Shown here one piece after another: positions 48,380-63,838 of a stretch of DNA of 64,000 nucleotides. Origin of the DNA: a virus; IMG/VR virus record IMGVR_UViG_3300037189_006220, positions 1 to 64,000 of that record, one strand, 5' to 3'. Below the pieces are notes generated by a model. It saw only the letters and a list, made by a program, of their open reading frames with translations. It was not told where the DNA came from and did not search any database. Within the stretch, counting starts at the first letter, position 1, and each line of letters opens with the position of its first letter. The position numbers and the translations under genes were made by a program.

Positions 48380-48706
48380 CTAGAGGATAACGTGGCTAGA
48401 CAGCAGAGCATCCAGAGCACCTCGCGGTTTAGCTCCGGGAATCCGAGTCACAATCTCGGCATTGTTGATAAGCAACATAGTTGGAATGGAGTTGATGCTG
48501 TATTGCTTTCCAAGTTCTGGTTCTTCGTCAATGTTTACTTTGACAATCTTGAGGTTGTCACCGTATTGGTCAGCAAGAGAATCGAGAATGGGGTTCATCG
48601 CGTTGCACGGACCACACCATTCTGCCCAAAAATCAACCAACACGAATCCGTGGTGGAGGACTACATCTTGCTCAAATGTCTCAGTCGTTGTCTTCACTAC
48701 TGGCAT
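48380..48706 (-). CDS. trxA: Thioredoxin
   Basis: LVDFWAEWCGPC, SIPT. Confidence 0.95.
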   Translation of the reverse strand: MPVVKTTTETFEQDVVLHHGFVLVDFWAEWCGPCNAMNPILDSLADQYGDNLKIVKVNIDEEPELGKQYSINSIPTMLLINNAEIVTRIPGAKPRGALDALLSSHVIL

Positions 48707-48917
48707 TGTCGTCTCCTTCAGTTTCTGGTTCTGCGTCGTCATTTAATTTTACAGGTTCAGAGCCATGCTTAGAAAAGTTGTCGCAAACATTACAGCCACA
48801 GATATATTCTTTGCCAGCCCACTCAAGAACTGGCAAACATTCAGCATGACTGTTGGTGATGCACCAGCCACAGGGTGCTTTCATAAAGACTTTCTCAGCC
48901 ATGACCTATCCGTTCTG

Positions 48918-61347: not shown

Positions 61348-61683
61348 AAATGTGAAAACGCAAGTTTTCCGACATGAGTAATTTCGCTACCTACTCACAT
61401 AAAATCGCCATCCCCCTCCATCTGGTTGAGTACCACTCCTAGAATATGTGAGGGGGATGGTGTTTTCTTGACAAAAAATATGTCATGTCTTTTTAAGTTA
61501 TTTAACATATTTATTCTCACTAAGCTTAATGAGAATAAGCTGACAATAAATAATTATTATATAAGTTTTAGTGATTGTCTCGGTCTGTTGAGCAGCTCAG
61601 AATTTGCTAAAATAGAAGAACAAACAATCCCCCTCTTGACCAAGAAATTGGTCATTTTTCTTCTGCCCTGAAAGGTCACAAAC

Positions 61684-61767
61684 ATGAATGAATCACAAGA
61701 CACCGTTGGCGGATACTGCATCCCCGTAGACCCGATGGACATGCTTCAGTGCGATTCCTGCCAGTAA
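61684..61767 (+). CDS. 27-aa peptide resembling the RNR alpha C-terminal redox tail
   Basis: MNESQDTVGGYCIPVDPMDMLQCDSCQ*; GAAAGG SD; TGCTAAAAT extended -10 at 61605. Confidence 0.7.
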   Translation: MNESQDTVGGYCIPVDPMDMLQCDSCQ

Positions 61768-61856
61768 GAATCTAACCCTCGGGTTAACGCCCGGTGCTCC
61801 TCGTAGTAGAGTTGAGTACCGGGCTTCTTTCACCCCTCTAAGACAGCTAGGACATA

Positions 61857-62789
61857 ATGTACGCCCCTGAAACTCTGGTCTTGACATCGTCAGGACACAA
61901 GCCTCTTAGTGAGCTTGATGGACACATGGTGGACGTATGGAATGGCGAAGAGTTTTCGCTAGTCCTAGTTGGACAGGCTGGAAAAGATAAGCCTCTAGTT
62001 ACCGTTGTCTTTGATACCGGAGCAGAGATTACCTGCACTCCAGACCAAACGATGTTTGTCCAGAATGGATACTTCGACCACACAATTTCTCGTAAGCGAG
62101 TTGCAGAAGCACTGCCCGGAGAAAAGATTGTTAAGTCCGAGTTCCCACTCTTAGAGCACGGCACTGAGCTAATTCCTAATGCTTACACCCACGGCTTCTA
62201 CACAGGAGCAGAACGGTTTAAGCGTCGCCCCGGAGTTGTATCAAGACTCGCTATCTATGGTGGTCGCAGACCATGTCTAGATGAGCTTGACCTAGACCCT
62301 CGGACAGATAAGACTAACCTCTACTTCACTACAGAAATGCTTGGAGACTTCGAGGTTCCACTCAGCACTAAGTACTCACTAGAGTCCAAGCTTGAGTGGC
62401 TAGCTGGACTTTTTGATAGTGGTCTTATTAAAAGAAAAATTGGTTCACAACCAATGTGGCATCTCTACTCAAACAACTTTCAGTTTCTTAAAGACATGAA
62501 ACTTTTCATGCAGACTTTGGGAAGCGATGTTCGAGTAGTAAAAAACGAAGATATGAACCGTCTTGAATACACACTACGGTTCTCTGGAAGACCGATGCAG
62601 AACTTACGAAAGCTCGGAGTCCCAGCAAAGTATATCACCATCCCTGAAGTATCTTACAAACGACGTGGAGTTGGTTATCCACGAATTGTGAGCATCATCG
62701 ACAACAACCGCCGTGACACGGTTTACACGCTCATGGAAAAGAAAACTCACCGAGCAGTGTTCAACGGCATCTTAAACGCAACCCAATAA
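61857..62789 (+). CDS. Free-standing intein-derived Hint plus LAGLIDADG-like protein
   Basis: APETLVLT..G..VWNGEEFS, ITCTPDQ, WLAGLFDSG, VY..HRAVFNGIL; no exteins. Confidence 0.8.
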   Translation: MYAPETLVLTSSGHKPLSELDGHMVDVWNGEEFSLVLVGQAGKDKPLVTVVFDTGAEITCTPDQTMFVQNGYFDHTISRKRVAEALPGEKIVKSEFPLLEHGTELIPNAYTHGFYTGAERFKRRPGVVSRLAIYGGRRPCLDELDLDPRTDKTNLYFTTEMLGDFEVPLSTKYSLESKLEWLAGLFDSGLIKRKIGSQPMWHLYSNNFQFLKDMKLFMQTLGSDVRVVKNEDMNRLEYTLRFSGRPMQNLRKLGVPAKYITIPEVSYKRRGVGYPRIVSIIDNNRRDTVYTLMEKKTHRAVFNGILNATQ

Positions 62790-62808
62790 CTAACAAGGAG
62801 AAACAACA

Positions 62809-63798
62809 ATGGCAATTCTAGGAACCGGCATCCAAGAGGGACTCCTCCTGAAGCCAGTCAAATATCAGTGGGCAATGGACTTGTACGACCAAGCAGTTGC
62901 CAATACTTGGTTCCCCAACGAAATCCAACTAGGCGAAGACATCGCTGACTTCAAAAAGATGTCTGAGGATGAGCAACACGCTATTACGTTCTTGATGTCA
63001 TTCTTTAACCCATCAGAGCTTATTGTGAATAAGGCTCTTGCCTTCGGTGTCTACCCTTACCTAAATGCACCCGAGTGCCACCTCTACCTTGCTAAGCAGA
63101 TGTGGGAAGAAGCAAACCACTGCATGTCGTTCGAGTACGTCCTTGAGACGTTCCCTGTAGACCGTAAGAAAATTTATGAACAGCATGTTGCTGTAGACAG
63201 CATCAAAGCCAAGGAAGACTTCGAGGTCAAGTTCATTAAGCGCATGACCGAAGATACCATTGACATCAACACCGTAGAGGGAAAGCAGGACTTCGTCCGC
63301 AACCTCGTGGCTTACTCGGTCATCATGGAGGGTATCTGGTTCTACTCGGGCTTCATGGTGGCTCTGAGCTTCCGTCAGCGCAACCTACTTCGTAACTTTG
63401 CCTCACTGGTGGACTGGATTGTCCGTGACGAGAGCCTTCACCTCAAGTTTGGTATCAACCTCATTCTTGAGGTACTCAACGAGAATCCTGAAATTGTCAC
63501 AGACGAGTTCGCAGCCGAGATTCAGCAGATGATTTTTGATGCTGTTGACATGGAGATTACCTACAACAAGGAGCAGTTCCCCAACGGTATCCTTGGACTC
63601 AACGCTGACTATGTTAGCCAATACACCAAGTACCTCGCTGACCGCCGTCTTGAGGAGCTTGGATTCCCCCCACACTACAACGTGGGTAACCCTGCTAAGT
63701 GGATGGCTGCGGCTAATGATACTCTTCAGCTTGTGAACTTCTTTGAGTCCACCAACACAAGCTATGAATCAAACGCATCAGCTGCTACTGGTAAGTAG
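62809..63798 (+). CDS. nrdB: Ribonucleotide reductase beta subunit, class Ic-type residues
   Basis: W.P.EI, FFNPSE, EEANHCMSF, EGIWFYSGF, RDESLH, NFFE..Y. Confidence 0.93.
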   Translation: MAILGTGIQEGLLLKPVKYQWAMDLYDQAVANTWFPNEIQLGEDIADFKKMSEDEQHAITFLMSFFNPSELIVNKALAFGVYPYLNAPECHLYLAKQMWEEANHCMSFEYVLETFPVDRKKIYEQHVAVDSIKAKEDFEVKFIKRMTEDTIDINTVEGKQDFVRNLVAYSVIMEGIWFYSGFMVALSFRQRNLLRNFASLVDWIVRDESLHLKFGINLILEVLNENPEIVTDEFAAEIQQMIFDAVDMEITYNKEQFPNGILGLNADYVSQYTKYLADRRLEELGFPPHYNVGNPAKWMAAANDTLQLVNFFESTNTSYESNASAATGK

Positions 63799-63838
63799 TA
63801 AGTGATAGGCTCTTTAAAGAGTCAGTTGCTTTACCAAT

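Follow-up and report, generated by a model that had tools for sequence, protein, structure and literature searches.

The first 64 kb of the viral record IMGVR_UViG_3300037189_006220 (120,518 bp in total), referred to here as the window, contain a 27-codon gene whose product is probably a free-standing tail of the class I ribonucleotide reductase (RNR) alpha subunit, NrdA, acting in trans and serving the tailless alpha of the host. This reading is carried by full-length NrdA proteins that end in the same motif, by bacterial operons in which the tail is a small open reading frame (ORF) of its own beside a Cys-less nrdA, and by the occurrence of the motif and one type of RNR in exactly the same genomes of a sampled family. 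An earlier note on this DNA had proposed that the tail is supplied in trans, either completing a tailless phage NrdA or boosting or competing with that of the host; that the host alpha itself appears to be tailless is an addition to it.

The 27-codon gene and its conservation

The gene and its putative ribosome-binding site are as follows.

61684..61767, + strand: putative free-standing NrdA-tail micro-protein gene, ATG start, 27 aa, C-terminus DPMDMLQCDSCQ-stop (ORF list, conservation, profile hidden Markov model (HMM), codon selection, homology)
61670..61675, + strand: Shine-Dalgarno-like GAAAGG, 8 nt 5′ of the ATG (read in the sequence)

The translated peptide is the one quoted in the earlier note. 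The peptide ends in QCDSCQ-stop, i.e. with a Cys-x-x-Cys pair at the extreme C-terminus. Neither the peptide nor its profile matched a family in Pfam, NCBIfam, PHROGs or the PDB sequences, and an Rfam scan around the gene found nothing. Thioredoxin-fold redoxins (Trx, Grx, NrdH) hold their CxxC in a fold of ~75–110 aa and the peptide, with 27 aa, is not one of them. A precursor of a ribosomally synthesised and post-translationally modified peptide was also considered and rejected, the neighbours being the intein ORF and nrdB here and nrdA/nrdB or dehydratase/murB elsewhere, with no recurring maturase cluster.

The earlier note had suggested a survey of small CxxCQ ORFs near phage nrdB. Thirty-three related IMG/VR loci were fetched via NrdB and 18 of them contain the peptide ORF. 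The stop codon of the tail gene overlaps the start of nrdB (TAATG) in five loci, the gene lies downstream of nrdB in four, and in six an intein-like ORF follows next, as in the window. All 16 homologues in an alignment share D16, P17, C23, C26 and Q27. A degenerate DNA pattern for the last 12 codons plus stop, with the reversed pattern as control, gave exactly one match in each of 5 related phage genomes (reversed control 0) and is present in at least 117 viral contigs, although it misses variants such as the extended tail in genome G038 (see below). Among the 117 listed viral stretches, 3 also contain nrdB of the window type, and an nrdA body is found in one only, as a separate gene. An HMM of the peptide searched against 1.84 billion representative proteins (E ≤ 1e-3) retrieved 481 protein clusters. 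The 150 matches listed are all 25–151 aa long, and in 143 of them the motif ends at the protein's own last residue; the longer matches look like over-extended gene calls.

Selection was read from 122 distinct viral copies. Mean entropy at codon positions one, two and three was 0.85, 0.74 and 1.63, the third being about twice either of the others. At a Pro outside the search motif the values were 0.29, 0.25 and 1.96, and the Ser between the two Cys is encoded by TCN in 61 copies and by AGY in 36. Judged by these codon patterns and by its distribution, the small gene is real, conserved and under selection at the protein level. Lack of conservation, which would have spoken against the earlier note, was thus not what was found.

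In the viral loci L043–L159 the tail gene often stands just 3′ of a peptidase-like gene (46 loci) and of small membrane-protein genes, a neighbourhood that by eye resembles the terminal part of a lysis cassette. In one viral contig the tail motif is fused to the C-terminus of a glutaredoxin (L048:2691-2990, − strand; PF00462, 1.3e-14; 99 aa, CAPC active site).

NrdA tails and split alpha subunits in bacteria

A slightly stricter motif was found in at least 120 bacterial loci. The 120 listed ones, to which the counts in this section refer, fall into the following classes.

33 of 120: motif closes an NrdA-sized ORF in frame
24 of 120: motif in its own ORF beside nrdA, in another frame
12 of 120: motif in its own ORF beside nrdA, same frame behind the stop
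3 of 120: partial RNR neighbourhood
48 of 120: no RNR gene in the stretch (unlinked copy)

Six of the fused ORFs were checked with Pfam and are class I alpha subunits with ATP-cone, all-alpha and barrel domains. They come from Demequina (L231), Terracoccus, Jiangella and metagenome-assembled genomes (MAGs) assigned to Saccharibacteria, a gammaproteobacterium and an ‘archaeon’; in most fused-tail loci nrdB lies closely downstream. An alignment of the peptide to NrdA C-termini, as the earlier note had advised, leads to the same proteins from the other side: in tblastn, residues 968–989 of Demequina NrdA match positions 61699–61764 with 64% identity over 22 aa (E 0.001), and within the phage record this protein matches the peptide gene only. 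The likeness extends past the cysteines, a 20-residue stretch being common to the Demequina tail and several viral peptides. As this motif also terminates full-length class I NrdA proteins, we conclude from these alignments that the peptide is homologous to their C-terminal CxxC tail, and that it is not merely a CxxC.

In 36 of the 120 loci the tail is a small ORF of its own beside a Cys-less nrdA, in Microbacteriaceae and Saccharibacteria. The Microbacteriaceae-type genera include Protaetiibacter, Cryobacterium, Lacisediminihabitans, Rhodoglobus, Homoserinibacter, Leifsonia, Humibacter and others. Their NrdA proteins are 812–880 aa long with a Gly-rich C-terminus. For the 11 operons of this type the last 14 NrdA residues were displayed, and the seven ends that were read through to the barrel have no Cys after it. 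In these 11 operons the tail ORF comprises 21–34 aa, starts at −1 to +12 nt from the nrdA stop with ATG (ten) or GTG (one) and is followed by nrdB; before most of the starts a GGAG-like stretch can be read in the preceding 16 nt, within or just after the 3′ end of nrdA. In eight Saccharibacteria-type operons the motif sits on a protein of 57–60 aa with a helical-looking N-terminal part. The active-site residues of alpha are retained: across 18 of 18 aligned sequences C227, N439, C441, E443 and C456 (L204 numbering for C227 and C456) are invariant.

Some observations on these operons may be added. The in-operon tail ORF of G038 (L293:3150-3560) extends 11 residues past the usual final Gln, whether by natural variation or through an assembly error. 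Two members of 27–28 aa carry the NCBI name ‘ribonucleotide-diphosphate reductase subunit beta’, which we read as a mis-annotation. The NrdA proteins of the Saccharibacteria MAG loci (L161, L171, L177, L198, L211, L224, L267, L270) are 62–67% identical to Lacisediminihabitans NrdA, and the RNR type of these MAGs is the same. Saccharibacteria live as epibionts on Actinobacteria, so genes could have been exchanged between them.

The tailless alpha appears to be the only one available. Each of nine genomes tested has exactly one PF02867 alpha, the tailless one, and weak TIGR02505 matches in the tested genomes fall within that same gene; no RTPR was found in the five genomes tested for it, class III RNR not being part of the search. 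The number of tail genes per genome is 1–5. Co-occurrence was then determined in 121 genomes from the family of G006, with the NrdB type scored at E ≤ 1e-80. The tail motif is present in 53 of the 121 (reversed-pattern control 0 of 121) and the NrdB type in the same 53; no genome has one alone and 68 have neither. Within the sample, tail motif and RNR type are thus never found apart.

Two genomes of the group isolate the trans arrangement. In G022, two fetched loci of which have 45–47% G+C, NrdA ends without Cys, no tail ORF precedes nrdB and the sole motif match lies 35 kb away behind an NrdR-type box. G084 is alike, with the tail gene on another contig. Having only an unlinked tail gene, these genomes could use the tail only in trans. 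Together with the separate ORFs beside Cys-less nrdA in Microbacteriaceae and Saccharibacteria, and with the phage loci L024, L031 and L033 described below, they bear out, as far as gene arrangement can, the proposal that the tail is supplied in trans.

The peptide of the window resembles the unlinked copies most. Its last 22 residues match the unlinked type at up to 20 of 22 positions, and mean matches of 22 were 16.4 for unlinked, 12.8 for other-frame split, 9.9 for same-frame split and 10.0 for fused forms. Downstream, the 48 unlinked loci mostly share two MaoC/FAS1-type dehydratase genes, one of them confirmed by Pfam, and a murB-like gene; the Clavibacter unlinked locus lies 3′ of tRNA-Thr and tRNA-Met. 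About 100 nt 5′ of the unlinked ATG of the hosts there is a conserved element consisting of ACACTACATGTAGTGG, then ATGACA, then TATATAGTG. A box with no more than 2 mismatches from ACACNANATNTNGTGT starts 124–275 nt before the end of the peptide stop codon in 33 of the 48 loci, and similar boxes stand upstream of nrdA in 19 loci. The mark of an NrdR regulon is a tandem of 16-bp boxes, 15–16 bp apart, in the promoter; PMC13584703 gives C4, A6, A8, T9, T11 and G13 as conserved positions and a linker of 15–16 bp. Box 1, in its common form ACACTACATGTAGTGG, fits all six positions, and NrdR is present in four of four genomes tested. The conserved stretch had also been considered as a tRNA or riboswitch; this was rejected, since it aligns as an NrdR-box-like plus promoter-like site and Rfam finds only the nearby tRNAs. 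No NrdR box was found near the phage gene (61300–61900), and the whole window contains 8 isolated NrdR-type sites without a tandem pair.

A phage without alpha: proposed function and alternatives

The phage record has 48% G+C and a direct terminal repeat of 87 bp, and is classed by IMG/VR under direct terminal repeats. WhiB and DUF7455 genes were found near the small gene by Pfam scan, which we take to indicate a phage of Actinobacteria. The other components of the proposed system are given here.

48380..48742, − strand: phage thioredoxin gene (PF00085 8e-30)
61857..62789, + strand: free-standing intein-derived ORF, 310 aa, Hint plus LAGLIDADG-like, no exteins (weak Pfam matches plus homologues)
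62809..63798, + strand: nrdB, class I RNR beta with class Ic-like residues (PF00268 5e-76; NF007186 1.6e-113)

The small gene thus stands two genes before nrdB and the phage encodes a thioredoxin, both as the earlier note had it. The note had also seen no nrdA in the window, and this extends to the whole record: a class I alpha was not found by a PF02867 profile search of all 120,518 bp (the same profile was positive in 12 of 14 control genomes), and searches of the whole record with the TIGR02505 profile and with the RTPR protein of one relative had no match. A tblastn search with two host NrdA proteins (E ≤ 10) returned noise and the match of the Demequina tail only. Ten long ORFs scanned at 64–104 kb comprise a primase, a SNF2 helicase, a DNA polymerase A, a phosphoesterase-like protein and six without a Pfam family. 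No glutaredoxin was found encoded in the phage genome, and the phage thioredoxin is a likely reductant of the tail peptide. A search of the phages collection gave no DNA match to 61400–63800.

In phage NrdB, Phe occupies the position of the radical Tyr and Glu that of the first metal ligand. The best solved structures are 1syy, 4d8f and 2ani, chains that share the Phe and which we take to be Chlamydia-type class Ic beta subunits. The protein is 76–82% identical to the NrdB of the 53 genomes in the sampled family; this identity and a similar C-terminus suggest that it could pair with host alpha.

Related phage loci show how the arrangement in the window may have come about.

L031: tail gene, tailless nrdA with an intein at SNL/CTEI, nrdB
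L024, L033: tail gene, free-standing intein ORF, uninterrupted tailless nrdA, nrdB
Window, L004, L032, L034: tail gene, free-standing intein ORF, nrdB
L013, L014, L016, L019, L022: tail gene overlapping nrdB, neither intein ORF nor nrdA in the fetched stretch

The NrdA proteins of L024, L031 and L033 have no C-terminal Cys tail, which answers the question of the earlier note whether phage nrdA lacks the CxxC. Its proposal that the peptide completes a tailless phage NrdA may therefore hold for these relatives, and does not apply to the present phage, which has no nrdA. From the window locus nrdA has probably been lost, because L024 and L033 share the layout and have an intact nrdA, and because homologues of the free-standing intein ORF carry the RNR-alpha barrel, PF02867 (70 of 73 longer homologues). 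The terminal-repeat genomes G001, G003 and G005 likewise have nrdB and the tail gene and no alpha, with NrdB intact at 89–91% identity. G002, the record that holds L016, encodes an RTPR-type class II reductase (L037:490-2550; TIGR02505 3e-109); the RTPR gene precedes the tail gene and nrdB by ~5 kb, and no class I alpha is present.

The following mechanism is proposed. Thioredoxin, of which host and phage each encode one, would reduce the Cys-x-x-Cys pair of the peptide. The reduced peptide would enter the active site of alpha and reduce the disulfide left by each turnover; oxidised, it would leave alpha and be re-reduced. The probable host lineage is Microbacteriaceae with a class Ic-like RNR, whose sole alpha would lack the Cys tail and receive it from one to several small genes, one often between nrdA and nrdB and another unlinked behind NrdR-box-like sites. 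The phage would carry a copy of the unlinked type, without NrdR box, in addition to its own nrdB and thioredoxin. Having these and no nrdA, it would during infection top up beta, tail and reductant around host alpha, outside NrdR control, and thereby raise the supply of deoxynucleoside triphosphates (dNTPs). We infer that the gene is translated in this phage, that the peptide binds and shuttles electrons, that phage beta pairs with host alpha and that the phage gains from it. Of the second proposal of the earlier note, service to the host NrdA fits this phage; competition with it found no support.

Complex prediction was performed with residues 105–822 of L204 NrdA and its own 33-aa tail ORF, using custom alignments. 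The score was 0.51 (runs 0.15, 0.51 and 0.56) against 0.00 for the best of 3 controls. Of 80 solved complexes 58 attained this mark, as did 2 of 110 mismatched pairs; at scores ≤0.60 it was attained by only 7 of the 80, but by both mismatches. Between runs ≥70% of contacts agree, with a predicted local distance difference test (pLDDT) value of ≥46 for the partner. The prediction weakly supports the pairing of alpha and tail. Together with the co-occurrence and the glutaredoxin–tail fusion, it lends indirect support to a shuttling of electrons from thioredoxin or glutaredoxin to the active-site disulfide.

Several points weigh against the tail reading. As the prediction gave no contacts, nothing places the Cys pair in the active site. 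The pairing of phage NrdB with host alpha is deduced from sequence likeness. Among RNA runs, none that contains this stretch was listed. CheckV estimates the phage record to be 71% complete in spite of its terminal repeats. The tail gene of G005 lies ~30 kb away from nrdB, and 114 of the 117 listed viral motif loci have no nrdB in the fetched stretch (mean 8.3 kb). These loci were collected by a motif requiring D-P..[DE]...C[DE].CQ-stop, and such a search enriches for what it looks for. No box was found in 15 of the 48 listed unlinked loci; box 2 agrees with the consensus at only four of the six conserved positions, and we count 17 nt of linker. Finally, since the unlinked copy precedes a MaoC-like dehydratase and murB, a second or broader role is possible.

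In one alternative the peptide would be a small dithiol of general use, as a shuttle or as a redox buffer, or the partner of another thioredoxin-dependent enzyme, its likeness to NrdA being a matter of descent only. Viral copies without an RNR gene nearby, often behind what resembles a lysis cassette, the dehydratase and murB neighbours of the unlinked host copy and the presence of up to 5 copies per genome are all in keeping with such a role. We consider it unlikely in view of the perfect co-occurrence with one RNR type (53 both, 0 single, 68 neither), the NrdR-box-like sites before the unlinked copy, the absence of a tail from the sole alpha of these genomes and the conservation of the motif well past the CxxC in fused and free forms.

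It is very improbable that the phage peptide is a decoy or inhibitor which blocks the active site of host alpha or drains thioredoxin, either stopping host dNTP synthesis or favouring a phage RNR. A free tail could indeed fill the active-site pocket, for which tail and nucleotide compete according to the accessible part of PMC11903788, and among the relatives some have an nrdA or an RTPR-type reductase of their own. However, neither this phage nor three further terminal-repeat genomes have an alpha, so that blocking would cut their own dNTP supply; moreover, the peptide is nearly identical to that of the host (20 of 22) with all invariant residues kept, and it travels with nrdB and thioredoxin.

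We find it less credible still that programmed frameshifting or read-through of the stop attaches the bacterial tail to NrdA, in which case the enzyme would not be split and the free copies would be something else. The overlap or close abutment of tail ORF and nrdA stop (−1 to +12 nt) and the 12 listed loci with the tail in the same frame behind the stop invite this idea, but the frame relation varies between genera and hence no single recoding rule fits. The tail ORFs of the 11 operons have their own ATG or GTG starts, mostly behind a GGAG-like stretch, G022 and G084 have no tail sequence beside nrdA at all, and the copies in phages and at unlinked sites are monocistronic genes, a long way from any nrdA.

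Least credible, and rejected, is the idea that the gene is a 3′ piece without function which survived by chance when nrdA was deleted from a decaying RNR locus: the adjoining ORF is an RNR-alpha intein without exteins and nrdA was probably lost here, as L024 and L033 suggest, but relatives that keep nrdA have the tail gene upstream of it as an ORF of its own while their NrdA ends without Cys, so that it is not a 3′ fragment, and the gene has its own start codon and ribosome-binding site, a signature of protein-level selection, homologues in at least 117 viral contigs and 481 protein clusters and no NrdA-like flanking sequence.

For the free-standing tail serving host alpha, a wider formulation can be given, towards which we lean by a modest degree. 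The tail would be a diffusible micro-protein, separately encoded and regulated, and the sole re-reduction route for the cell's only RNR in a large group of bacteria, 53 of 121 sampled Microbacteriaceae-family genomes as well as Saccharibacteria. Actinophages would have acquired its gene, which may be the smallest auxiliary metabolic gene, and the phage would form a chimeric enzyme, host alpha with phage beta, tail and thioredoxin, free of NrdR repression.

Among the closest known counterparts is the tail of class I RNR alpha itself (e.g. C695/C698 of B. subtilis NrdE; CXXC consensus), to which the peptide is linked by its C-terminal Cys-x-x-Cys and by homology. According to PMC11903788 and PMC9669993, this tail re-reduces the active-site disulfide and is itself reduced by thioredoxin. 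There it is a covalent part of alpha; here it is a separate, untethered product of 21–35 aa, encoded in several copies per genome, one of them unlinked, and carried by phages without alpha. Pseudomonas aeruginosa NrdJa/NrdJb are similar in that the body and the reducing C-terminal part come from two adjacent genes (PMC9669993, PMC4520616). Such a two-gene split of alpha is found in the hosts and in L024, L031 and L033, whereas the present phage has the tail part only. NrdJa/NrdJb are, however, class II and not class I, the reducing part is not a peptide of <35 aa, and the accessible text of these papers describes no unlinked or phage copies. A phage nrdA fragmented by a mobile element (PMC3045599) also has its large-subunit gene in pieces, yields a functional enzyme and lies in a locus shaped by homing elements. 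As far as that paper's accessible text goes, the split there cuts the catalytic body and the pieces join via mobile-element-derived domains; here only the tail is split off, the arrangement is native to bacterial hosts and the alpha body would have been lost from this phage. Phages may carry partial RNR gene sets, perhaps the rate-limiting parts, and whether such sets function is unknown according to the accessible part of PMC3653736, which does not mention a tail micro-protein among the phage RNR auxiliary genes. No description of a separately encoded class I RNR tail was found in the literature searched. To the earlier note the analysis mainly adds that bacteria of the host lineage already have the split themselves and that the phage would serve a host alpha.

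The alpha tail is essential for turnover and hard to study, being disordered and tethered. A free tail of 21–35 aa would allow binding, redox steps and kinetics to be titrated with synthetic peptides, which bears on how re-reduction is coupled to catalysis. Where the small ORF is missed in gene calling, tailless alphas would be read as lacking a reductant pathway. The gene would add 27 codons to the auxiliary RNR toolkit of phages and explain how phages with nrdB and without nrdA can still gain, and its host counterparts suggest that the NrdR regulon extends past RNR operons.

Neighbouring intein ORF and flanking signals

The 310-aa ORF between the tail gene and nrdB has weak Pfam matches to PF14890 and PF14528, both under the cut-off. 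Of its 73 longer homologues, 61 span 97–99% of the query at 24–33% identity. Residues 3–306 align with the intein of L031 (nrdA residues 450–756) at 39% identity (E 2e-68). The ORF thus spans a whole RNR-alpha intein; its first Cys is replaced by Met and it ends in NATQ-stop. It is intact in seven loci of six related contigs at ~39–42% identity.

The remaining elements around the small gene are listed here.

61605..61613, + strand: possible extended −10, TGCTAAAAT (read in the sequence)
61637..61654, + strand: hairpin plus T-run in the leader, 5′ of the ribosome-binding site, terminator-like (consensus scan)
61789..61831, + strand: hairpin GCCCGGTGCTC ... GAGTACCGGGC, then TTCTTTC, 3′ of the small gene, terminator-like (read in the sequence)

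The earlier note had given the gene its own extended −10 and Shine-Dalgarno sequence. Both GAAAGG and TGCTAAAAT are present; a promoter of its own stays unproven, because a sigma-70 consensus scan, which requires a −35 element, called no promoter at 61605–61613. The extended −10 candidate is poorly conserved in L004, L005 and L032. The 3′ arm and T-run of the leader hairpin (TTGGTCA.TTTTC) are partly conserved in L004 and L032. The terminator scan made no call at the downstream hairpin, both arms of which are conserved in the same two loci. On contig IMGVR_UViG_3300012000_000019 the nrdB match is split over the adjacent loci L034 and L036 (residues 1–172 and 192–329, ~11 nt apart); an insertion, a masked segment or a boundary between stored stretches could account for this.

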